Assembly: GCF_902652985.1 (NCBI RefSeq)
Contig: NC_047032.1
Location: 28,024,001-28,088,000 of the forward strand
Origin: Pecten maximus
Lineage: Eukaryota
Length of the DNA: 64,000 nucleotides
Reading direction: 5' to 3'
The translations under genes were made by a program, and so were the position numbers. The notes beneath the pieces are model-generated. The model had not been told where the DNA came from. It saw only the letters and a program-made list of their open reading frames with translations, and ran no database searches. Positions 5,129 to 50,291 of this stretch are shown in pieces; the first letter of the stretch is position 1; the number at the start of each line of letters is the position of its first letter.

Positions 5129-5910
5129 GAATTCGGCAGTATGCTTCAGTGAGGTAGCACTATAAATCGGCAAAACCCATACAATGTAGTGACAAGTACT
5201 CACGTGTAGTGGCTGTATGTATACATTGCGGGGTTCAGGATCAAAGAGGCCGCTCTCTGACACCCCGCGGGATTAAATACTAGCTCACGTGCGAAATGAG
5301 TTCCAACCAAGGGAGCTAACTCCCCCGATTTTCACTACACTAGTAACAAAGTGATATTTTCGCTCAAATGAAATGTCTACTCGTTTTACCTGGTATCTGT
5401 ATCGGTTTATTGCCGGCACCATACATGTATCTACTGAATACGTATTTTTTATAGTCAAACCAACTTTTTAGACTAGACCTTAGCAAAAACTGACGACTGA
5501 TAGATGTGAATCAATCAGAAAACGTTAGGGTTGTCCCCCTTGAATGCAGATTACTCCGCGCGAGCGTGAAATGCGTGTAATATAGATTTTTCTTACATAG
5601 CAATCTTACATGTGCAAACTCAATCAAACACGGCAAGATATAAGTAAAAATTAAGTAACTTACCAGAGCCCCTAAAAGGTTGTTATCAACAATATTTATT
5701 CCAATGTATCGACTAAGACCCTTCACCAACTCTCTTAAGCTGAAGCTTTAAACTTAGTTGTTGTATGCCATCCCATGGAAGCCTAGGACTAGCATAAATG
5801 TATAATTTTATGGAAGAAAGTCTTGGACAGAAAAATTGTAAATGGAACTAGCATAAATGATGTATGATTTCATTGAAGAAAGTCTTAGACGGGAAAATGT
5901 GAATGCAACT

Positions 5911-6151
5911 AGCATAAATAAACAATTAAATATTAATATTTAATTGCATTTATGTTAAGTGCTTGTGATTGTTGTATATTATGTATATTAACCTTATATG
6001 GTAATTTGACATCACATGACCAGAGTAAGACTGCGCTGTCAGGCATCACGTGATCATTGCGAGACTGCGCAGTACAGCTTTTGAGACGTCACTTTAGCGT
6101 CAGCCAGAAAAGGGAGTCAAAGGCCAAAGGTAAATGTGTTTTATTTGCATT
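5911..6151 (+). repeat. Split direct repeat A1 (241 bp)
   Basis: Near-identical to 12276-12516. Confidence 0.95.
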
Positions 6152-6212: not shown

Positions 6213-6812
6213 ATGGATAGTTCGCCAGTGAACGTGGCTGTTATGGGACATAGCTTTGTGCGCCGTTTATCGGAATTTGTGTCGAGTAGGGATGCAGAAT
6301 GGCGGAATTTGAGGCTAGAGGAGTCGAGTATCAAGGTTTCCTTTCTGGGCAAAGGCGGAGGTCGAGTTTCTGATCTTTTTTCTGATCAATTCAGACGTTT
6401 CGTGGAGGCGGTAACTCCCGATGTGGTTATACTTCAAATAGGTGGCAATGATGCTGATTGTCCTTCGGCAGAACCTCGTCGATTGACGATTAACATTTTC
6501 TCGATTGCGGAGTGGTTGCTTGGGTATGGGGTAAAGCATGTTGTGATTATGCAGTTGTTACCGAGACAGCAAACTCGTCGGGTTTCCCCCGTTGTGTACA
6601 ACGAGTTTATTAAGACTGTGAACCAACACATCAAACGCATGGCTAGCACACGAGGTGATATTTCTTACCACAAACATAAAGGTTTGAAGGGAAGTCCCAC
6701 AAATGTGTTTCGTCGAGATGGGGTTCACCTAAATGACGCGCACGGGCTCCCCAAGTATGTAAGGAGCGTGCGCGGTGCGGTCATTGTAGGGGCCAGACAA
6801 CTCAGCTCGTGA
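6213..6812 (+). CDS. SGNH/GDSL-type hydrolase (esterase) encoded by the YR retrotransposon, 199 aa from ATG 6213
   Basis: All four SGNH blocks are present: MGHSFV (catalytic Ser), GKGG, QIGGND, RDGVHLN (DxxH). Confidence 0.85.
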   Translation: MDSSPVNVAVMGHSFVRRLSEFVSSRDAEWRNLRLEESSIKVSFLGKGGGRVSDLFSDQFRRFVEAVTPDVVILQIGGNDADCPSAEPRRLTINIFSIAEWLLGYGVKHVVIMQLLPRQQTRRVSPVVYNEFIKTVNQHIKRMASTRGDISYHKHKGLKGSPTNVFRRDGVHLNDAHGLPKYVRSVRGAVIVGARQLSS

Positions 6813-7635
6813 AGACTAACTGATCACAGTAAGTTATGTTTAAGTGTTGTTGTGTAGTTGCCATAATATAGCGGAAGTAATGGAAAGATTGTTGTTGCTC
6901 GAGGTTCTGTTTATTGTATAAACTTAGAGATGAGCTGTAACCAGTCAACTTACACGTGATCTCATACTTTCGGTTTGCTTCGTGTGTTTGTTTACAATCC
7001 GTTATGACCTAGTTAGGATACACGTTTCACTACATACGGTAACTACTAGTTTCACAGGTCATATAGTCGACATGCTAGGGGCCTTTGTGGCCTATGTACA
7101 TTGGTTCTTCATACAAATATAGTTTTGCAGTTATTTCCAGCCTCTGTGGCGTCTTAAGTATGTGTTGGGTGCCTGTGTGTCACCTTTCTAGGTATATATA
7201 GGTATATATATATCTTGGCCTTTGTGGCGAATTTTTACATTGATAAGCCTTGGTGGCTGATGTCCATATTAACAAGCCTTTGTGGCATATGAACTATACC
7301 TGTGTGGATAGTTTGTTAATATTTACTTGTATGTGTGTCTGGGACATGGGTAATTAGTAATGGTGTCATCATTAATCAAATAAATAAACAAATGTGACTT
7401 ACACATTGTTATGTGGTTTGCTAGACAAATTACTGAGGTGTATGGTTATTTTGATGATGTCTACATTTGCATTGTTGAGTTAGGGCAAATAATAAATACT
7501 AATTACATGCAAATAGGTTACAAGTTTTTGAGGCCAACTTGTCTCTAGCTAGCTTGTTTTCCTGTCACAAAGTACATGTTAATATGTCTATACTGGGGCA
7601 TCCAATTATATGTATTTTCTTTCTTTTTGAGCACA

Positions 7636-8801
7636 ATGCCTCTTACTAGACGGGCCGCGAAAAACCACAGGGTGATTAACACCACAAGCACTGAGCGGGC
7701 AACTGAGGTCCAGATAGAACCACCCACTCCACCCAACATAGTCAGGGGCAGAAGGGCCAGAGGGGCAGTGGAGGAGGTGCCAGTGGTGATGGCAACGACA
7801 ACGCCTATTTCTCAAACAGCTGTTCAGACGCCATCAGTCTCAGCTATAGCAGCTGAGCTATTCCAACTTATGAAGGCAGAAGGCATGGTGATGAGAGAAC
7901 CACAGCCAGTGTACCATAGCCTGGGTCAAACAGGGCAATCAACCACTATAAGTGCCCCTATGCAACAGCTGGGGCCTTCTACATCAGGAACAGCTACATC
8001 AGCAGCGCTTGGTGCTCCCGGACAGCAGTTGATACCTCCAGTGCGGACCACAACGCATGATAACGTATTGACTGAGAATTCGTTGCCACTGTCCGATATT
8101 GTTTTTGGGCCTGTGGCCGACAGTTTGACAGGTAATGGTACATTACCTGTTTTCCGCAGCATCAGCCGCCCGCTTGACGTAGGTCTAGAGCCCCGAATGA
8201 AAGAGAAAATTAATTCGGATCAGTTTGTTGAGTTTGGGGCCTTAATCAATCCCAATAAGTCAGAAAAGTATGACATAACCTTTCAGGCCAACACTTTGTC
8301 ATTGGTGCCAAAAATCAGAGCAACACAGCTCAAAACCTTGGAGCAATGGCAGAGTGCCTTTCAAATTTTCGTAACAGTTCTGACAAAATCAAAACCTGCT
8401 TTGGCTGCTTCCCTCATGAAGTACGCCCACACGATTCAAACAATAGCAAAAAAGGCGGGTGATGCTGCGGCGTTAGCATATGATATTAATTTTCGTAAGT
8501 GGAGGCAGGCAACCCCTGATGATCTTCAGAGTTGTATTTAGATGCGCTGACAGCGGGAGTTCAGGCTAAACGCCCCAGCAATCAAAATTCCACACCACCT
8601 GGTCAACAGGGAAAAGTTTGTTATTCTTTTCGTAACAAAGGGATGTGCAACAAAGGAAATTGCTCCTTTCAACATGTCTGCAAATTTTGCAAAGGTCCCC
8701 ATTCCTTTAAAAAATGTCAAAAGCCTGCCCAGCAAAGTCAGCCCACAAATAGCCAACCCGCCGGTGGTAACAAACCCAAAACACCAGGTCAATCAAAATG
8801 A
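7636..8801 (+). pseudogene. gag-like ORF1 of the YR retrotransposon, frameshifted near 8528
   Basis: The DIRS-type gag core (EQWQSAFQIF...AYDINFRKWR) lies in 7636-8541. The C-terminal Cys/His finger (CYSF...CNKGNCSFQHVCKFCKGPH...C) continues in another frame (8532-8801). Confidence 0.8.
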
Positions 8802-10374
8802 AACCATTAGTACTTCTCCAGTGAATTTTAAAAATATCAAACAACATCTTGATAATTATGATAATGAATTAACCAGTTTTTAGGAGAGTGGTTTTCAGTA
8901 TGGGTTCTCTTTGCGTTATGAGGGCCCTAGGATGTTTAGGCATGCTGACAATTTGCTTTCGGTAAAACAAAACCCAGAAATTCTGGATCAGAAAATTCAA
9001 CAGGAAATAGCTCTAGGTCGTATTTCGGGCCCCTTTTCAACACCACCTTATCAGAATTTGCAGATATCACCGCTAGGTTTAGTACCAAAGAAAGAGCCCG
9101 GGGAGTTTAGGGTCATACATCATTTGTCTTATCCTTTGGGCTCGTCCATAAACGATGGTATTGCAGATAGTGATAAATCAGTGCAGTATGAAACTTTAGA
9201 TAAAGCTGTGGAAATAATTAATCATTTTGGGCAGGGAACTTTAATGGCAAAAACGGATATCGAATCCGCATTTCGTATCATCCCGGGTCATCCAGATGAT
9301 TATGAATTGTTAGGAATGAAAATAGGTTCTAGCTACTATTATGACAAGTGTCTGCCCATGGGATGTGCTATTTCATGTCAACTTTTTGAAAAATTTAGTT
9401 CGTCGTTGCATTGGATTATGGAACATCAGTTCCATGCATCTGGTATGGTTCACGTTTTAGATGAATTTTTATTTTTGGGACCGCCAGATTCAAACAATTG
9501 TCAGGTTGATTTACAATTTTTTTTAGATTTATGTCAACATGCTCGCATTCCGATCAAAGCTTCCAAAACAGTCATGCCAACAACCTGTCTTACATTTCTT
9601 GGCATAGAATTGGACACTGTTGAGATGGTAGCTAGATTACCAACTGACAAAGTTGAGAAAATGAGACAAACAATAGCTGCTTTTCTGGTTAAGGGCAAAG
9701 TAACGTTACGTGAAATTCAGTCCCTGATAGGGTTATTAAATTTTGCTTGTCGTGTTATCACCCCGGGCCGACCCTTCCTTCGTAGGTTAATATCATTAAC
9801 TCTCGGCTTCAGTAAACCTAACCATCATGTGCGTTTAATAAAAGCCGCAAAGTGTGACCTGAGAGTTTGGCAGGTTTTTCTGAACCATTTTAATGGTACT
9901 ACCATGTTGTTACCCACGGCTTGGCATTCATCAGATACTTTGTGTATGTTTACTGATGCCAGCAATTTAGGTTTTGGAGCTATTTGTGGGTCACATTGGT
10001 TCAATGGGGAATGGCCAGAAAAATTACAGATATATCACATTAATATCAAGGAACTGTTTCCGATTACAGTCGCTCTTGAAGTGTGGGGTCACAAACTTAG
10101 GAACTCTAGTATCCTGTTCTTTTCGGACAATCTGTCTGTAGTCCACATAATAAATAAACAGTCGTCGTCAGATCAAGTCATGATGAATTTAGGTAGAAGG
10201 CTCGTTGTTGCAGCCCTAACTTTTAACATTCAATTTAGGGCTCGTCATATTCCTGGCAGGTTGAACGTTGCAGCTGATTTACTGTCTCGTTTACAGGTCC
10301 AGGCTTTTCGTCAGCACGTTCCACACATGGACAGTTGTCCCATGCCAGTACCTCAGACGTTGTTACAAATCTGA
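8674..10374 (+). pseudogene. RT/RNase H ORF of the YR retrotransposon with an in-frame TAG (8881-8883) and a DD-to-DE catalytic change
   Basis: ORFs 8674..8883 and 8911..10374 are in one frame (TSF*ESGFQYGFSLRYEGP). Motifs: SPLGLVPKK, KTDIESAFR, LPMG, HVLDEF (expected xLDD) and RNase H FTDAS / KEL / SDN / NVAADLLSR. Confidence 0.9.
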
Positions 10375-11297
10375 CACAAGAAGTACGCTGCCTGCTAGAC
10401 AACGCACTTACCGAGAGCTCTAAACAATTATACAGGAGGGCTTTTCATTTACTGTTTACATTTTTGCATAACACTATGCATGTTAGATGTCACTTGCCCA
10501 TTAGCATTGATCACTTAGCACTGTTCATAGCTCATTTGGTACAATCTGGCTTTGCCACTTCTACTATTTATTCTTATGTATCTGCTATTGGTTATGCACA
10601 CAAATTGTTGAATCATACAGATCCTACTCAAATTTTTGTTATACGGAAAATGTTAACAGGATTACAGAAGAAAGGTAAAGCTCCTGACACTCGCCTTCCA
10701 ATTACTCAATCGATTCTTCAAAAGCTTGTTTCTTCTTTGTCAGCAATTGATCTCACCCCTTATGAAATCTTGGCTTTCAAGTCCATGTACTTGTTGGCAT
10801 TCCATGCATTCTTGAGAATTGGGGAGATTGCTGCGGGCCAAAGTAAACACAACCTTTTACAACTTAGCAACATTCAGTTCTTTAAGGTGGGGTCAGTTGC
10901 TTTTCCTACGCGTTTAGAAATCAAATTTGAGTCGTACAAAGGTCATTATCATACTGATCCTATGACTCTTTCCCTACAAGGGCATTCTGATAAGTCGTTT
11001 TGTCCAGTATACAATCTGTATTGCTTTCTACAGACAAGGGGCTCAAAACCAGGTCCTCTATACATTTTTCAGTCGGGCAAACCAGTCTCCTATGCATACT
11101 TTACAAGAATTATGAAACGTGTTCTGTTAGCTTCTGGTTATAGCACTGACTCATATAAGAGTCATAGTTTCAGAATAGGAGCTGCTAGTTTGGCCGCAAC
11201 CATGGGGGTACCTGAGGGTGATATTCAAGCAATGGGCAGGTGGCATTCGCGTGCGTTTAAGAAATACATACGTATACCAACTTTTTCTGCAATTTAG
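10335..11297 (+). CDS. Tyrosine recombinase (phage integrase family) of the retrotransposon
   Basis: Catalytic set FLRIGE (R), YKG (K), SHSFRIGAA (HxxR), GRW and KKYIR (Y). The ORF overlaps the end of the RT ORF and has no ATG at its 5' end. Confidence 0.92.
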   Translation: MSHASTSDVVTNLTQEVRCLLDNALTESSKQLYRRAFHLLFTFLHNTMHVRCHLPISIDHLALFIAHLVQSGFATSTIYSYVSAIGYAHKLLNHTDPTQIFVIRKMLTGLQKKGKAPDTRLPITQSILQKLVSSLSAIDLTPYEILAFKSMYLLAFHAFLRIGEIAAGQSKHNLLQLSNIQFFKVGSVAFPTRLEIKFESYKGHYHTDPMTLSLQGHSDKSFCPVYNLYCFLQTRGSKPGPLYIFQSGKPVSYAYFTRIMKRVLLASGYSTDSYKSHSFRIGAASLAATMGVPEGDIQAMGRWHSRAFKKYIRIPTFSAI

Positions 11298-12048
11298 TTA
11301 GCTAGTGAGTTGGATGCATGGCATCTTCACACTAGGTTAACATTGAACAATAATGGTTTGATTTGCCTGCCTCCCATTTTACATAACTTCATACAAACTA
11401 TTTAATGTTAGTTGTGTTTATTACATTAGAACCATTCTATTGTTGGCGTCATTTAACACGCAGTGAAATTTATCATGAGCTGATTATGAGTGAAAAAGTG
11501 TATTAACTAGCTAGACTGCAAAGTGGAAATAAGGGTCTTGGGGTGATGCACCTCTGCTCCTTTTTTCATTATTTTATACACGGGGTATTACTGTGGTCAG
11601 TATACACCAGAAAGTTACATTTGGTTCAGTGCGGTTCTTCCTTAACATTTCCATGATATTCGTTGGACTTATCGTGTATACGTACAATCATATGGGCATG
11701 GGGTGATGCACTTCTGCCCTTAGGAGCCAATGGACGTATTTGGAATAACCGCATATAGTAAGCTTACTAGTGACACTTCAGTGTAAGCAATGATATTTGG
11801 GATGGCTTATGCCATTCATACGAAACTGTTCAGTTCATGAGACACAATTTTGAACAATGTGCATTTCTTAAAGGGAATTTGGGATGCTTCAGCTCTGCCC
11901 TTCTCATGTAGTTAAAGTTATATATGTATGTAAATAATTGTATTACAAAGTTATTCCTGTGTTAATCAGTTTTCAGTCAGACTGCTTCGGGTGGGGATGC
12001 ATTTGTAATGTCACTGACCCATGGGTCACTGACATGACACTGCATGGT

Positions 12049-12516
12049 GGCTGATTTTCCCCCTCACCTACAATAGTCATATATAGAAAGTTATCCTGAT
12101 TAGGATAAACCGTGTTATGTAATGTTAATTTTCATTACATAAGGTTATGTAATTAAATATTTCATGTCGTTTTAATAAACGGCCATTTCAATCTATCAAA
12201 GTGTTTCTGTTCTTTGTGACTATTGGACAAGCTTGCAGTTTGACTGAAAGCGCAGTGTGGTAAAACAAGCAGCTGAGCATAAATAAACAATTAAATATTA
12301 ATATTTAATTGCATTTATGTTAAGTGCTTGTGATTGTTGTATATTATGTATATTAACCTTATATGGTAATTTGACATCACATGACCAGAGTAAGACTGCG
12401 CAGTCAGGCATCACGTGATCATTGCGAGACTGCGCAGTACAGCTTTTGAGACGTCACTTTAGCGTCAGCCAGAAAAGGGAGTCAAAGGCCAAAGGTAAAT
12501 GTGTTTTATTTGCATT
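12049..12516 (+). repeat. Split direct repeats B1 (12049-12275) plus A2 (12276-12516); internal copy of the circle junction
   Basis: B1 matches 13033-13259 and A2 matches 5911-6151. The junction reads CAGCTG-AGCATAAAT-AAAC. Confidence 0.95.
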
Positions 12517-13032: not shown

Positions 13033-13268
13033 GGCTGATTTTCCCCCTCACCTACAATAGTCATATATAGAAAGTTATCCTGATTAGGATAAACCGTGTT
13101 ATGTAATGTTAATTTTCATTACATAAGGTTATGTAATTAAATATTTCATGTCGTTTTAATAAACGGCCATTTCAATCTATCAAAGTGTTTCTGTTCTTTG
13201 TGACTATTGGACAAGCTTGCAGTTTGACTGAAAGCGCAGTGTGGTAAAACAAGCAGCTGAGCATAAAT
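13033..13268 (+). repeat. Split direct repeat B2 plus 9-bp core AGCATAAAT
   Basis: Identical by eye to 12049-12284. Confidence 0.95.
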
Positions 13269-13684
13269 GATGTATAATTCCATGGAAGAAAGTCTTAGAC
13301 GGGAATATGTTTTTCTTGAATATCGGCACAGCTTACAAGAATTATGTATATAACTTCCACGGAAGAAAGCCGTAGACGGGAAAATGTCTGCAAAAACACA
13401 CTTTGTTGGTTCCGCAGTAAATACATTTGTATCAAATGTATCATAAATCTTGAAAGTGTAAAAATCAAATTATTGACACGTGTAAATGGTTTAATGTAAT
13501 AAGAAGATTAGACTTTAATTTGGAAGACTACAAACGCATCGGATGATTTCAAGAGTTTCTTTATTCCAAGCTTAAAAAGCATAGATTGCAAGAAACGAGG
13601 ATAAGATGTTTTAAGAAAAGACAAGTGTTCTATTGATGTATTCCGAATAAATAATCAAATTAATTGTAAAAAACAAATGGTGGA

Positions 13685-24276: not shown

Positions 24277-27200
24277 TCACGTGTGAGGTTCGGCTGACAG
24301 TGCCTTCACAAATTCTGGAAGAAAAGTTAATAACTATTATTTAATCATTTTTATCTTATGTTAGGTGTCCTCAGAATAACGACAATCGTATAGTTTTTAG
24401 CTTATACCATTCTATCGACTTAAAACACTCACTAAATACTTCATATGTGTATAAAATGTTCAAATCATTCCATTATTTCGCATATTGAGAGTAATTTATA
24501 ATCAGTTAATAATCCAAACACATAAACCCTAGAATACTGGGATATGAGCATATTCGTTCTCTTACCGTCTATAGAAATTTTTCCGTCACTGTTTACGTCG
24601 ACAAGTCTGAAGACCTCCTCGGCCTCCTGGTCAGACATTTTCTCCCCCATACCCCTGAGAACCTGCTTGAGTTCCCCTTTGTCCAGGTAACCGTTTCCGT
24701 CACGATCGAAGGTACAAAAGGCCTGTCGGAGTTCCCGGTCTTGAAAATCTAGTAGAGCTACGTACTCTTCCATCATCGTCTCAAACTCCCGATAACTAAT
24801 ACATCCATTTCCTGTAAAGACACGCGATTTTCATGTATGTAAACCCTAACAATCTAGTAATATTATATCTTTGTAGGATAACCACTGAAGCATTGATGTA
24901 GCACTTAACTTAGTATCTTTCTTCTCTACAAACCACCCTACATTCTTATGAATAGCAATAACGTTAGGAATTCAGTTCCAAACAGACAAATCACCCAATA
25001 ACATCAACTACTATCAGTTTTCTATCGACGATACTCTTTTAGTCTTAACTAAATGTAATTGTTAATTATACAGAAAAAAATGGTTATAGAATTACTTTGT
25101 ATACTTTCGTAAATAGAACCATGAATATCCGGGTAGTGACAATAGGATTGCTTTATAATTCTAAGATGATTAAAACTTTAGAAAAACGTCATTTCTTAAT
25201 GTACACCGATGGATTGTTTAATCCGTAAGTTTTATAAACGTGCTATGGATAAGGATACATACAAAATATAAAATTTAACGTAGACGTAAAACATTTTGGT
25301 CAACGATCAAATCTTAGTATGAGGACAATTATATAATACTGCACTTACTGTCTTTGTCAACTTTTCTGATCATTGCCATAGCTTCTTCTCGCGTTGGCTT
25401 CATTTTGAGCATGCGCGCAGCTGTCATAACTTCATTTACGCCAAGACTTCCGTTTCCGTTTGTGTCTAATTGGCGAAACAGCTTCTTCATCACTGGAGGT
25501 AAAAAAAATGTTTTGTGACTACTATCCAACGCCTAATCAACACGTTCAGTTCATTTAAGGATGATGTCTATTTAAAGTGGCTATTCTAAAGTAACATATG
25601 GGGATGGAAGCTGAGGGACACCAAGCGCCATGGTCATATGATGGGTGTGTATATTGGAAGAAAAACAACTAGCGATAGGGGTCAATCCACGGTAATAAAG
25701 GGTGTGGTTAGGGCTGCACAACATACCAATGTTTTATGAGCAATAGTACCTACGAAACAAAACCCCAGGATTTGCAGGGGACATCAACAGCAATGGTTAC
25801 ATGAGTACTATTTAAAGGGGAAAGGGGGATGGAGCGTTTGAAAAGGATTAAAAGGGACCATCAACATCCATATCAATTTAAGACGGATTTTTTTTTAGAA
25901 AATCATCAGCCAGAGCCATACGAGACGGATTTATAAGTACACATCCACTGCTAGGGCCAGGCTATATGAGGAATGAGTTAAAGGGAACATCATCAGCCAG
26001 GGACATTTGAGACGGAATTGTAGGGGTAGCATCAACAGCAAGGGATATTTGAGACGGAATTGTAGGAGTAACATAAACAGCCAGGGACATTTGAGACGGA
26101 ATTGTAGGAGTAACATAAACAGCCAGGGACATTTGAGACGGAATCGTAGGGGTAACATCAATAGCCAGGGACATTAGAGACGGAATTGTAGGGGTAACAT
26201 CAACAGCCAGGGACATTTGAGACGGAATTGTAGGGGTAACATCAATAGCCAGGGACATTAGCGACGGAATTGTAGGGGTAACATCAATAGCCAGGGACAT
26301 TAGCGACGGAATTGTAGGGGTAACATCAATAGCCAGGGACATTAGAGACGGAATTGTAGGGGTAACATCATCAGCCAGGGACATTTGAGACGGAATTGTA
26401 GGGGTAACATCAATAGCCAGGGACATTAGCGACGGAATTGTAGGGGTAACATCAATAGCCAGGGACATTAGCGACGGAATTGTAGGGGTAGCATCAACAG
26501 CCAGGGACATTAGAGACGGAATTGTAGGGGTAACATCAATAGCCAGGGACATTTGAGACGGAATTGTAGGGGTAACATCAATAGCCAGGGACATTAGAGA
26601 CGGAATCGTAGGGGTAGCATCAATAGCCAGGGACATTAGAGACGGAATCGTAGGGGTAACATCAATAGCCAGGGACATTAGAGACGGAATTGTAGGGGTA
26701 ACATCAACAGCCAGGGACATTTGAGACGGAATTGTAGGGGTAACATCAACAGCCAGGGATATTTGAGACGGAATTTTAGGGGTAACATCAATAGCCAGGG
26801 ACATTAGAGACGGAATTGTAGGGGTAACATCAACAGCCAGGGACATTAGAGACGGAATTGTAGGGGTAGCATCAATAGCCAGGGACATTTGAGACGGAAT
26901 TGTAGGGGTAACATCAATAGCCAGGGACATTTGAGACGGAATTGTAGGGGTAACATCAATAGCCAGGGACATTTGAGACGGAATTGTAGGGGTAACATCA
27001 ACAGCCAGGGACATTAGAGACGGAATTGTAGGGGTAACATCAATAGCCAGGGACATTAGAGACGGAATTGTAGGGGTAACATCAATAGCCAGGGACATTA
27101 GAGACGGAATTGTAGGGGTAACATCAATAGCCAGGGACATTAGAGACGGAATTGTAGGGGTAACATAAACAGCCAGAGACATTTGAGACGGAATTGTAGG

Positions 27201-28627
27201 GGTAGCATCAATAGCCAGGGACATTTGAGACGGAATTGTAGGGGTAACAACAGCCAGGAACTTGAGACGAATTTATAGGGACATATCCACGGGCATATGA
27301 GGACCGGTTTACTTTGGGACATCAACAACCAGGGCAATGTGAGGACGAATTTAAAGGGAAACATCAACAGCCAAGGCAATGTGAGGACGAATTTAAAGGG
27401 AAACATCAACAGCCAAGGCAATATGAGGACGGATTTGAAGTATGAGGACGGATTTGAAGGGTAACATCAATATCCAGAGCCATATGAGGACGGGTTATAG
27501 AACATCAACAACCAGGGCCATATGAGGACAGATTTAAAGGTAAACATCAACAGCAAGAGCCATATGAGGACGGATTTGAAGGGTAACATCAATAGCAATG
27601 ACCATAGAGGGCGGGTTATAGAACATCAACAGCCAGGGTCATATGAGGACAGAAATCCAGATGGACACCAAAACAGAAACAGTAAACAAGGAGGAAACGA
27701 ATCGACAAAACTGTTGCACAATGGGCATCAGCTCAATTTTAAACAATAAGTGTTTTGGTAGCACTTCCAGAGAATGTCGATAATATGGCTTATCATTAAA
27801 GTTTGGCATATACTGAATTGTTTGTTTACATATAATGCATTCACATTTAAAGACGGTATCCAGTTGTATGTCTTGTTCATTTCTTTGTAATATAGAGCAC
27901 AGTTGTTCAAACGGTGATTAGCGTAATCACTTGATAAGTGAGAATCTCATTTCTCCTTTATTTAAAAATCTAGTTGCATGTAGGAGGAGACTGACAAGTG
28001 CTATAGTTTCATCTTTTGTCAAATAAGTTTTACCACAAATGGTTTTATTAGGTTCCCAACTTTTTTTCCTATCATCACTGGCTAGACAAGGAATGACGAA
28101 TTCGAAACAGCTGTATGATTAATATTTAGCTATGAAAGGGCGAAATAGCTGTATATGTAATACAGTGTGTACTAGTACATATATGTATTAAGATATGAAA
28201 GGACGAAATAGCCGTGTGATTAATATTTAAATATGGAAGGACCAAACAGATGTACGATTAATATTTAATGTTTTGTTATTTTTTATCAAACCCTTGAAAT
28301 GTATCTTCATGTATATAATTATATCCTTTTGGACAAATTGATTTATAACCCTTTTCCCTAGGATGTTCAGATTTTACCGTCGTTTACAAGTCTGCGTTGT
28401 CTTGTGTAGTTTCTTACCTATTTCGGTCGCATATATCTGAAGACTGTCAATGTCCGGTAGTAGGTCAAAGTCTTCCTCATGTACAAGATAGAAGGATTTT
28501 CTTTAGAGCGAAATGTGTTTTCTAATCATCATCATAGATGAATTTGGTAATTGACAGAAATAATGGACTCACCTTTTTTAAATGTCCGTTCGTCTTGTAG
28601 TTCCCGAAGAGCTATTTTCTGGTCCAT
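24277..28627 (-). CDS. Calmodulin-like four-EF-hand calcium-binding protein (about 160 aa; first coding exon tentative)
   Basis: Exons 28627-28573 (tentative, MDQKIALRELQDERTFKK), 25492-25349, 24811-24566, 24314-24277, all joined by phase-1 GT-AG introns. EF loops are DTNGNGSLGVNE, DKDRNGCISYRE, DRDGNGYLDKGE and DVNSDGKISIDE. The protein ends FVKALSAEPHT*. It is too divergent to be canonical calmodulin. Confidence 0.85.
25770..27650. repeat. 42-bp minisatellite: about 30 homogeneous copies (25985-27260) with degenerate flanking units, inside an intron of the EF-hand gene
   Basis: Unit GACGGAATTGTAGGGGTAACATCAATAGCCAGGGACATTAGA. Confidence 0.95.
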
Positions 28628-45960: not shown

Positions 45961-48900
45961 GTGTCCGACTATGCCCCTACCGAGTGTCCGTCTATGCCCC
46001 TACCGTGTGTCCGACTATGTCCCCTACCGTGTGTCCGACTATGTTCCTACCGAGTGTCCGTCTATGCCCCTACTGTCTGTCCGACTATGTCCCTACCGAG
46101 TGTCCTAAAATGCCCCTACCGTGTGTCCGACTTTGCCCCTACCGAGTGTCCGACTATGTCCCTACCAAGTGTCCGACTATGCCCCTACTGTGTGTCCTAC
46201 TTTGCCCCTACCGAGTGTCCGACTATGCCCCTACCGAGTGTCCGACTATGCCCCTACCGAGTGTCCGACTTTGCCCCTACCGAGTGTCCGACTATGCCCC
46301 TACTTTGTGTCCGACTTTGCCCCTACCGAGTGTCCGACTATGCCCCTACCGAGTGTCCGACTATGCCCCTACCGAGTGTCCGACTATGTCCCTACCGAGT
46401 GTCCGACTATCTCCCTACCGAGTGTCCGACTATGCCCCTACCGAGTGTCCGACTATGTCCCTACCGAGTGTCCTACTATGTCCCTACCGTGTGTCCGACT
46501 ATGCCCCTACCGAGTGTCCGACTATGTCCCTACCGAGTGTCCGACTATGCCCCTACCGAGTGTCCGACTATGTCCCTACCAAGTGTCCGACTAATTCCCT
46601 ACCGAGTGTCCGACTATGTCTCTACCAAGTGTCCGACTATGTCCCTACCGTGTGTCCTACCAAGTGTCCGACTAAGCCCCTACCGAGTGTCCGACTAAGC
46701 CCCTACCGAGTGTCCGACTATGCCCCTACCGAGTGTCCGACTATGCCCCTACCGAGTGTCCGACTATGTCCCTACCGAGTGTCCGACTATGCCCCTACCG
46801 AGTGTCCGCCTATGTCCCTACCGAGTGTCCGCCTATGTCCCTACCGAGTGTCCGACTATGTCCCTACCAAGTGTCCGACTTTGTCCCTACCGAGTGTCCC
46901 AATATGTCCATACCGTGTGTCCCACTATGCCCCTACCGAGTGTCCGACTATGTCCCTACCAAGTGTCCGACTATGTCCCTACCAAGCGTCCGACTAATTC
47001 CCTATCGAGTGTCCGACTTTGTCCCTACCGAGTGTCCGACTATGTCCTTATCGAGTGTCCGACTATGTCTCTACCGAGTGTCCGACTATGTCCCTACCGA
47101 GTGTCCTACTATGTCCCTACCGAGTGTCCTACTAAGCCCCTACCGAGTGTCCGACTATGTCCCTACCGAGTGTCCTACCATGTCCCTACCGAGTGTCGGA
47201 CTATGCCCCTACCGAGTGTCCGACTATGCCCCTACCGAATGTCCTACTATGTCCCTACCGTGTGTCCGACTATGTCCCTACCGAGTGTCCTACTATGTCC
47301 CTACCGTGTGTCCGACTATGCCCCTACCGAGTGTCCGACTATGTCCCTACCGAGTGTCCGACTATGCCCCTACCGAGTGTCCGACTATGTCCCTACCGAG
47401 TGTCCTACTATGTCCCTACCGTGTGTCCGACTATGCCCCTACCGAGTGTCCGACTATGTCCCTACCGAGTGTCCGACTATGCCCCTACCGAGTGTCCGAC
47501 TATGTCCCTACCAAGTGTCCGACTAATTCCCTACCGAGTGTCCGACTATGTCTCTACCAAGTGTCCGACTATGTCCCTACCGTGTGTCCTACCAAGTGTC
47601 CGACTAAGCCCCTACCGAGTGTCCGACTAAGCCCCTACCGAGTGTCCGACTAATTCCCTACCGAGTGTCCGACTATGTCTCTACCAAGTGTCCGACTATG
47701 TCCCTACCGAGTGTCCGACTATGCCCCTACCGAGTGTCCGCCTATGTCCCTACCGAGTGTCCGCCTATGTCCCTACCGAGTGTCCGACTATGTCCCTACC
47801 AAGTGTCCGACTATGTCCCTACCGAGTGTCCCAATATGTCCATACCGTGTGTCCCACTATGCCCCTACCGAGTGTCCGACTATGTCCCTACCAAGTGTCC
47901 GACTATGTCCCTACCAAGCGTCCGACTAATTCCCTATCGAGTGTCCGACTTTGTCCCTACCGAGTGTCCGACTATGTCCCTATCGAGTGTCCGACTATGT
48001 CTCTACCGAGTTTCCGACTATGTCCCTACCGAGTGTCCTACTATGTCCCTACCGAGTGTCCTACTAAGCCCCTACCGAGTGTCCGACTATGTCCCTACCG
48101 AGTGTCCTACCATGTCCCTAACGAGTGTCGGACTATGCCCCTACCGAGTGTCCGACTATGTCCCTACCGAGTGTCAGACTATGTCTCTACCGAGTGTCCG
48201 TACCGAGTGTCCTATTATGTCCCTACCGAGTGTCCGACTATGTCCCTACCGTGTGTCCTACTATGTCCCTACCGAGTGTCCGACTATGTCCCTACCGAGT
48301 GTCCTACTAAGCCCCTACCGAGTGTCCGACTATGTCCCTACCGAGTGTCCGACTATGCCCCTACCGAATATCCGACTATGTCCCTACCGAGTGTCCGACT
48401 ATGTCCCTACCGAGTGTCCGACTATGTCCCTACCGAGTGTCCGACTATGCGCCTACCGTGTGTCCGACTTAGCCCCTACCGTGAGTCCGTCTATGCCCCT
48501 ACCGAGTGTCCTACTTTGCCCCTACCGAGTGTCCTACTATGCCCCTACCGAGTGTCCTACTTTGCCCCTACCGAGTGTCCTACTATGTCCCTACCGAGTG
48601 TCCGACTATGCCCCTACCGTGTGTCCGACTAAGCCCCTACCGAGTGTCCGACTATGCCCCTACCGTGTGTCCGACTATGCCCCTACCGAGTGCCCGACTA
48701 TGTCCCTACCGAGTGTCCGACTATGCCCCTACCGAGTGTCCGACTATGTCCCTACCGTGTGTCCGACTATGTCCCTATCGAGTGTCCGACTATGTCCCTA
48801 CCGAGTGTCCGACTATGCCCCTACCGATTGTCCGACTATGCCCCTACCGAGTGTCCGACTATGTCCCTACCGAGTGTCCGACTATGTCCCTACCGAGTGT

Positions 48901-50291
48901 CCGACTATGTCCCTACCGAGTGTCCTACCATGTCCCTACCGAGTGTCGGACTATGCCCCTACCGAGTGTCCGACTATGCCCCTACCGAATGTCCTATGTC
49001 CCTACCGTGTGTCCGACTATGTCCCTACCGAGTGTCCTACTATGTCCCTACCGTGTGTCCGACTAAGCCCCTACCGAGTGTCCGACTATGTCCCTACCAA
49101 GTGTCCGACTAATTCCCTATCGAGTGTCCGACTTTGTCCCTACCGAGTGTCCGACTATGTCCCTATCGAGTGTCCGACTATGTCTCTATCGAGTGTCCGA
49201 CTATGTCCCTACCGAGTGTCCTACTATGTCCCTACCGTGTGTCCTACTAAGCCCCTACCGAGTGTCCGACTATGTCCCTACCGAGTGTCCGACTAATTCC
49301 CTATCGAGTGTCCGACTTATGTCCCTACCGAGTGTCGGATTATGCCGCTACCGAGTGTCCGACTATGTCCCTACCGTGTGTCCGACTATGTCCCTACCGT
49401 GTGTCCGACTATGCCCCTACCGAGTGTCCGACTAAGCCCCTACCGAGTGTCCGACTATGTCCCTACCGAGTGTCCGACTATGTCCCTACCGTGTGTCCGA
49501 CTATGCCCCTACCGAGTGTCCGACTATGTCCCCTACCGAGTGTCCGACTATGTCCCTACCGAGTGTCCGACTATGTCCCTACCGTGTGTCCGACTATGCC
49601 ACTACCGAGTGTCCTACTATGTCCCTACCGAGTGTCCTACTATGCCCCTACCGTGTGTCCGACTAAGCCCCTACCGAGTGTCCGACTATGTCCCTACCGT
49701 GTGTCCGACTATGTCCCTACCGAGTGTCCTACTATTCCCCTACCGAGTGTCCGACTATGTCCCTACCGAGTGTCCGACTATTCCCCTACCGAGTGTCCGA
49801 CTAAGCCCCTACCGAGTGTCCGACTATGCCCCTACCGAGTGTCCGACTAAGCCCCTACCGAGTGTCCGACTATGTCCCTACCGAGTGTCCGACTATGTCC
49901 CTACCGAGTGTCCGACTATGTCCCTACCGTGTGTCCGACTATGTCCCTACCGAGTGTCCCAATGTCCATACCGTGTGTCCCACTATGCCCCTACCGAGTG
50001 TCCGACTATGCCCCTACCGAGTGTCCGACTATGTCCCTACCGTGTGTTCGACTATGCCCCTACCGAGTGTCCGACTATGCCCCTACCGAGTGTCCGACTA
50101 TGTCCCTACCGTGTGTCCTACCAAGTGTCCGACTAAGCCCCTACCGAGTGTCCGACTAAGCCCCTACCGAGTGTCCGACTAAGCCCCTACCGAGTGTCCG
50201 ACTAAGCCCCTACCGTGTGTCCTACTATGCCCCTACCGTGTGTCCGACTATGTCCCTGCCGAGTGTCATACTAAGCCCCTACCGAGTGTCC
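45961..50291. repeat. 23-bp satellite, about 188 copies (ACCGAGTGTCCGACTATGYCCCT)
   Basis: Read directly. Three units give the 23-aa repeat seen in all the overlapping ORFs. Confidence 0.97.

Follow-up and report, generated by a model that had tools for sequence, protein, structure and literature searches.

Splicing from gag to an acceptor in RNase H codons as the probable source of the start-less tyrosine recombinase of a scallop Ngaro-like retrotransposon

Retroviruses express env, and foamy viruses express pol, by joining a 5′ donor to an acceptor located within coding sequence, thereby reaching a 3′ open reading frame (ORF) while the unspliced RNA serves as the genome; as a rule these downstream ORFs have their own start codon or receive a few leader codons. 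Among retroelements whose coding capacity includes a tyrosine recombinase (YR), introns or spliced transcripts are said to have been discussed for some by Goodwin, Poulter and Butler. According to excerpts of PMC5580714, the Ty1/Copia element EVD of Arabidopsis carries a conserved and partly retained coding-region intron that gives rise to a second message and sets protein ratios, with the spliced product being a short Gag-only RNA. Excerpts of PMC9210276 describe the Xenopus element DIRS-53_XT (Ngaro-like, order DIRS) as bearing repeats of about 240 nt in the order A1 ... B1 A2 B2, overlapping gag, reverse transcriptase-RNase H (RT/RH) and YR frames, and an SGNH ORF located after YR, without a methyltransferase. 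Neither a mechanism for YR expression nor splicing of an element was found in the ORF-overlap passages of PMC9210276, PMC3783388, PMC6681497 and PMC3266345. Within the portions of the literature searched, which included parts of PMC7192593, PMC4157794, PMC2632668, PMC9341512 and PMC5633606 and did not extend to Goodwin and Poulter 2004 or Poulter and Butler 2015, no explanation for the start-less overlapping recombinase ORF of DIRS-order elements and no description of a spliced Gag-YR message were found.

Here we describe an element of this known kind, located in a 64,000-nt stretch of the Pecten maximus genome (the window), whose expression route was not found in print and is well supported as a splice. 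An initial annotation, made from the letters of the window, had proposed that the start-less YR is produced as a fusion to the N-terminal part of Gag, Gag(N), by splicing from a donor in gag (8131) to an acceptor just upstream of the YR ORF (10296). We assign this reading, with its 498-aa Gag(N)-YR product, a probability of roughly 0.88. It is upheld by joined genomic copies from two families, by joined contigs in two sequencing runs of one sample, by a RefSeq model, and by conservation of both sites and of their phase. In contrast to EVD, the splice in the window element removes the Gag core together with RT/RH and fuses Gag(N) to a downstream integration enzyme; it departs from retroviral env and foamy-virus pol in the length of the fused leader, about 165 Gag codons, and in the type of enzyme, a tyrosine recombinase. 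Retroelements would thereby employ splicing in a third way, in addition to those of Copia gag and retroviral env.

Comparison of repeats within the window revealed split direct repeats, not inverted ones, in the same A1 ... B1 A2 B2 order as DIRS-53_XT. A1 (5911-6151) and A2 (12276-12516) are identical over 241 nt, B1 (12049-12284) and B2 (13033-13268, the element's 3′ end) are identical over 236 nt, and A2 overlaps B1 by an ATAAAT core. Between the repeats gag, RT/RH and YR follow in that order on one strand (plus, as for the repeats and the SGNH ORF). The gag ORF gave no Pfam match and was called from its position and from its conserved core and Cys/His knuckle (8132-8801); the frame is broken near 8525-8541 in the window copy, ending at 8539-8541 with the knuckle in another frame. 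The RT/RH frame (8884-10374; PF00078, E 3e-11; PF17917, E 1e-4) follows directly on a stop at 8881-8883 and ends 26 codons past the acceptor and the RNase H motif, and no Pfam match to a methyltransferase was found after RNase H in the window element. An SGNH/GDSL hydrolase ORF (6213-6812; PF13472, E 2e-9) is located 5′ of gag, differing from its position after YR in DIRS-53_XT. By these structural features, as defined in parts of PMC9210276, PMC3266345 and PMC7192593, the element is an Ngaro-like YR retrotransposon, the RT tree being built from families of this genome alone. A methyltransferase would be expected in DIRS-like and PAT-like elements, and DIRS1 in addition has inverted terminal repeats with an ICR. 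A DIRS-like (DIRS1) class was ruled out, as the terminal repeats are direct rather than inverted and a methyltransferase was not found.

For comparison among relatives, 64 loci and the window were grouped into 35 families (median RT/RH identity 46%), of which the 27 with a long RT frame entered the tree and 8 were left out. The SGNH ORF is located 5′ of gag in 21 of the 35 families, whereas 2 have it 3′ of YR and 12 yielded no such ORF; this split in position tracks two deep clades of the RT tree.

The site coordinates of the initial annotation all held when the sequence was read again. The coding part of exon 1, the gag N-terminus (7636-8131), runs from the gag ATG (7636-7638) through a basic patch, a short helix and a low-complexity linker. 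It comprises 496 nt, which is 165 codons plus one nucleotide, so the donor ACAG/GTAATG following 8131 is in phase 1. This 5′ splice site (CAG/GTAATG, 8129-8137), at which the joined copies described below end, also outscores every other donor in the 120 nt that precede the Gag core. At the other end, the branch-like GCTGAT (10273-10278, containing the word CTGAT), an AG-free pyrimidine tract and the CAG acceptor (together 10273-10296, with the AG at 10295-10296) are embedded within the RNase H codons A-D-x-L-S-R-x-Q, and the acceptor is likewise in phase 1, with 10297 being the second base of a YR-frame codon. Because the two phases match, the joint reads through a Gly codon into YR, and the frame remains open from 7636 to the YR stop at 11295-11297, giving 498 aa.

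The intron, retained or spliced (8132-10296, GT..AG, 2165 nt), encodes the Gag core, the knuckle and nearly all of RT/RNase H, and its removal skips both defects of the window copy, namely the gag frame break and the RT-frame stop, as had been anticipated. Exon 2 (10297-11297) encodes the tyrosine recombinase (PF00589, E 7e-4) and contains what we take to be the catalytic R, HxxR, W and Y motifs. The YR ORF indeed has no ATG at its 5′ end: the frame opens at 10278, behind a TGA inside GCTGAT, and the first ATG is found at 10476, 60 codons past the acceptor. With its frame open and the catalytic motifs kept, the window copy could make the fused protein. A phase-matched GT/AG pair is by itself weak evidence, because the window gag contains seven GTRA sites, three of them in phase 1, and because the presumed branch and pyrimidine tract double as RNase H codons. 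Moreover, the two intron ends share 6 nt (ACAGGT; window, F01), so a deletion at microhomology needed separate exclusion, a point that the initial annotation had not raised.

A DNA search around the donor gave six matches, two of which stop at the donor. Both of these copies (L007 and L008) run from the donor straight into the sequence following the acceptor, exactly without 8132-10296. L007 is 99% identical to the window, is complete from A1 to B2, and has a 497-aa open frame from the gag ATG; L008 is 96-98% identical, lacks its 5′ end and has a broken YR frame. The flanks of L007, L008 and the window all differ, indicating that the three occupy different insertion sites. A protein search with YR gave 131 matches, and the best 129 of 927 candidates were scored. 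This search yielded a third joined copy, L052 from family F07, in which YR is 45% identical to that of the window. Compared with its full-length sisters L050 and L051, this copy is missing 2234 nt; the lost segment begins at a phase-1 GTGAGA within gag and finishes with the CAG homologous to the window's acceptor. L052 retains a 525-codon open frame, and its ends share 4 nt only. F01 and F07 lie on separate, well-supported branches of the RT tree, each with a full-length sister family. The precise removal of GT..AG ends, as expected of a major (U2) spliceosomal intron, is documented in two families.

Elements of this kind copy themselves through RNA, so the precise loss of a GT..AG segment from copies with intact ends has the appearance of a retrotransposed spliced RNA. 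No further precise joint was found among the candidates scored in three more searches (the best 150 of 490, 522 and 447) or among 80 additional loci. Precisely joined copies thus number 3 among some 154 YR loci examined, a total that may include duplicate haplotypes. Ordinary internal deletions were present in other copies (L101, L117, L183, L184). L183 and L184 are missing RT before YR and were rejected as joined copies, since their joints are located elsewhere, out of frame or through a poly-C run. L102 was also rejected: its 546-codon frame belongs to a full-length F33 copy (G000:C10:2384493) in which the RT/RH and YR frames run together. Separately, four F22 copies (L131, L140, L141, L143) share a 108-nt deletion over the acceptor, indicating a subfamily that spread without the acceptor, presumably non-autonomously.

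The initial annotation had called for a search for reads joining 8131 to 10297. Contigs from four sequencing runs were compared; their RNA status is guessed and contigs drop rare forms, and stretches of the element lacking contig cover were given no weight. Contigs from two runs of one sample (X1 and X3) join 8131 to 10297 and skip the 2165-nt GT..AG segment, while those from the other two (X2 and X4) show no joint. The X1 contig carries the joint with at least 255 letters on each side, and it also has at least six private substitutions that are absent from the window, L007 and L008. Because of these private changes its source may be an intron-less genomic copy rather than splicing, and the contig may be either the spliced message or the transcript of another intron-less copy of that animal. 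At position 7643 the X1, X2 and X4 contigs, as well as L007 and L008, all differ from the window, so no contig was traced to the window copy, and the suggestion of the initial annotation that this defective copy supplies recombinase in trans is a conjecture. In the X4 contig, 14 unmatched letters stand directly before the acceptor AG (10295) and have no exact match among the compared loci; they could derive from another donor exon or another family.

For family F04, no gag-YR joint was found in contigs from four runs of four studies, and a 4369-nt F04 contig (X6) is unspliced across both predicted sites. A contig from a related family in the X1 and X3 runs is also unspliced through the acceptor. 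The F04 result does not back the splice reading and suggests that unspliced RNA often predominates.

A protein search with the L007 frame gave 286 matches, the best 120 of which were listed. The RefSeq protein XP_033727187.1 (Pecten maximus) corresponds, letter for letter, to window 7576-8130, a Gly, and 10299-11294; its start at 7576 is 20 codons before the gag ATG at 7636. A second protein, XP_033727320.1, joins an F03 copy at the donor that had been ranked top beforehand. RefSeq models are predictions. Among 125 proteins compared, YR carries a Gag(N)-like extension in 15, 2 are RT/RH-YR fusions (P0020 and P0045) and 108 are short; of the 15, 6 are isoforms of one clam locus, and others originate from another scallop and an oyster, as well as from ENA and JGI contigs.

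LOC117316621 (XP_033727187.1) and LOC117316694 are automatic gene models with the same intron and product as described here, which are labelled "uncharacterized protein" and were not recognised as retrotransposon products. The splice reading would explain such "uncharacterized" two-exon RefSeq genes in bivalves as products of retrotransposons, and it defines a message, a protein and a junction for YR expression in DIRS-order elements. It would also mean that the real N-terminus is missing from YR proteins defined by ORF calling, a point of importance for the biochemistry and engineering of these integrases.

Since the acceptor coincides with codons for the RNase H motif ADxLSRxQ, protein conservation could explain its presence; the choice among synonymous codons argues otherwise. 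Codons were counted in 33 families with the motif, using RT codons as background. Of the 31 families with Gln at the motif position, 30 encode it by CAG, compared to a background of 191 CAG and 198 CAA (49%), the motif Arg is never AGA or AGG (0/33; background 51%), and the motif Ser is never AGT or AGC (0/33; background 23%). Two Pro-Asp families that were missed by the motif pattern likewise have CAG, and in the three families where this codon is not CAG, a CAG in phase is found one codon earlier or two later. Reading on from the branch-like word, the first AG encountered belongs to an in-phase CAG in 30 of 33 families. These counts bear out the idea of a YAG acceptor under selection, together with an AG-free, pyrimidine-rich tract.

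Because the families are related, the counts are not independent trials and binomial values overstate their significance, making a control across alignment columns the fairer test. Among 181 conserved RT/RH columns in 27 families, the Ser (TCT in 26/27) and the Gln (CAG in 24/25) are the most codon-fixed, whereas the only other invariant Gln splits 14:13, and AGR occurs in 8-21 rows at each of nine other Arg columns upstream. Mere avoidance of stops in the YR frame was rejected as the reason for AGR avoidance, since it cannot explain the fixation of CAG and since in most families a stop already closes the YR frame a few codons upstream. CAG is frequently followed by T, A or C, indicating that sequence shared with the donor is not general. 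Branch points are usually found about 18-40 nt upstream of an acceptor; here, CTGAY is present at -19 in many families, only mildly above background, and GCT at the branch-like Ala is mildly enriched (18/30 versus 42% in the background).

The donor side shows a constraint on phase. Within the 120 nt leading up to the conserved Gag core, the top-scoring donor is in phase 1 in 29 of 31 families, compared to 15, 10 and 6 of 31 for three control windows inside the Gag core, in a scan that used an approximate matrix and left out four families lacking a long gag frame. Most donor scores were low, as would be expected if the intron is partly retained, and three predicted donors only (F01, F03, F07) are backed by a joined form or a model. 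Conservation of both sites and of their phase among relatives, which the initial annotation had named as a check on its reading, thus extends across about 30 families.

The overlap of frames could alternatively reflect ribosomal frameshifting from the RT/RNase H frame, which would produce YR as part of an RT/RH-YR polyprotein and leave the splice as a rare by-product. The relative phase in which the frames overlap is shared by nearly all copies, fusions of this form exist both in full-length L102, with its 546-codon run-together frame, and in the database proteins P0020 and P0045, and unspliced contigs dominate in F04. However, in 26 of 35 families a stop no more than 10 codons upstream of the AG closes the YR frame, and in most families it is closed 7 codons before the AG by a stop that is part of the branch-like word, leaving little room for a frameshift. 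The sister copies of L102 keep the two frames separate, so the fusion in L102 looks like a private indel. Nor does frameshifting predict CAG over CAA, a preference that cannot come from the YR frame, where the residue at that position varies. We therefore regard frameshifting as very improbable.

Much the same slight probability attaches to the view that the joined copies and contigs are deletions, generated by RT template switching or by end-joining at short shared sequence with no splicing involved. The 6 nt shared by the intron ends in the window are compatible with such an origin, non-splice internal deletions are common among the copies, and a joined contig could be the transcript of a deleted copy. 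Yet the F07 copy, whose ends share 4 nt only, uses the homologous AG and a GT donor at the homologous place in the same phase. Deletion would furthermore leave unexplained both the fixation of CAG and avoidance of AG in families with T, A or C rather than GT after the acceptor, and why 29 of 31 families have their donor in phase 1.

A spliced Gag(N)-YR message raises the question of what its first exon provides. Neither the conserved Gag core nor the Cys/His knuckle survives in the fusion, which keeps the ATG and a basic patch, along with a short helix and sequence of low complexity. In 26 of 35 families the acceptor is followed by at least 27 codons without an ATG, and the contribution of the exon that can be read from the frames is a start codon for YR. 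That the acceptor is real and the main YR message nonetheless comes from another upstream exon (e.g. a non-coding leader from A1) or an internal start, with the Gag(N) fusion being minor, is again highly unlikely: A1 has a donor-like AAAG/GTAAAT near 6130, an ATG follows soon after the acceptor in 9 of 35 families and the loose end of X4 abuts the acceptor, but every precise joint (three genomic copies, two contigs and the RefSeq models) uses the gag donor, and the first ATG in the window family would cut a SAM-like domain (weak match, PF02899, E 0.1).

A basic patch (at least 5 K/R in 12 residues) was present in 25 of 31 N-terminal regions, compared to 6 of 31 cores; the N-terminal regions were taken as stop-to-stop frames, the best patch of F05 precedes its likely start, and the window's own best patch has 4 K/R in 12 residues. 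By its resemblance to the consensus for nuclear localization signals (NLS), the patch could mediate nuclear import, and this, together with the start codon, would be the most likely function of the exon. The short predicted amphipathic helix (7822-7902) is conserved in F01-F08 and F13, and might serve to hold YR on Gag; the recruitment of YR to particles that the initial annotation had raised is likewise a conjecture. Folding the L007 frame as a single sequence was uninformative (mean pLDDT 37).

Under the model of a spliced Gag(N)-YR fusion, the host spliceosome would join the phase-1 gag donor to the acceptor written into the last RNase H codons, and the start-less recombinase would be translated as the 498-aa protein. 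Splicing would be partial, with the unspliced RNA acting as genome and as the message for full Gag and RT. The spliced RNA would keep both terminal repeats and could occasionally be reverse-transcribed by RT supplied in trans, as parts of PMC7192593 report for DIRS-1, and then integrated to give intron-less copies. A broader proposal, offered tentatively and at somewhat less than even odds, is that Gag(N)-YR splicing is the ancestral and obligatory route in animal Ngaro elements, with S-R-x-Q doubling as the acceptor. The Gag exon would then act as a targeting module (NLS plus self-associating helix) that loads YR onto the particle and carries cDNA to the nucleus, and spliced RNAs would retrotranspose to produce RT-less Gag(N)-YR copies.

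Several further features of the element were observed. A pyrimidine tract directly before the gag ATG (window 7610-7642) is conserved with F02 and F03, where it ends in GAG, and in F06 it ends in CAG. Together with the donor-like site in A1, this tract could delimit a second intron skipping SGNH; no joint for an A1-to-gag intron was seen, and L007 and the X1 and X2 contigs read through the tract. The RT frame overlaps the end of gag by at least 110 codons in every family (window 8551-8883). The host site of the element is a 62-nt tandem repeat (window 5798-5919 and 13260-13387). The ATAAAT core at the B1/A2 overlap is also found at both element ends and at the ends of L007, as expected if the recombinase crosses over at a short shared core. 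In and before the B repeats there are palindromes and hairpin-like inverted repeats (12004-12039, 12115-12157 and 13099-13141). Elsewhere, the window contains a 42-nt tandem array (25986-27650) and a 4.3-kb GC-rich satellite with a 23-nt unit (45961-50291).
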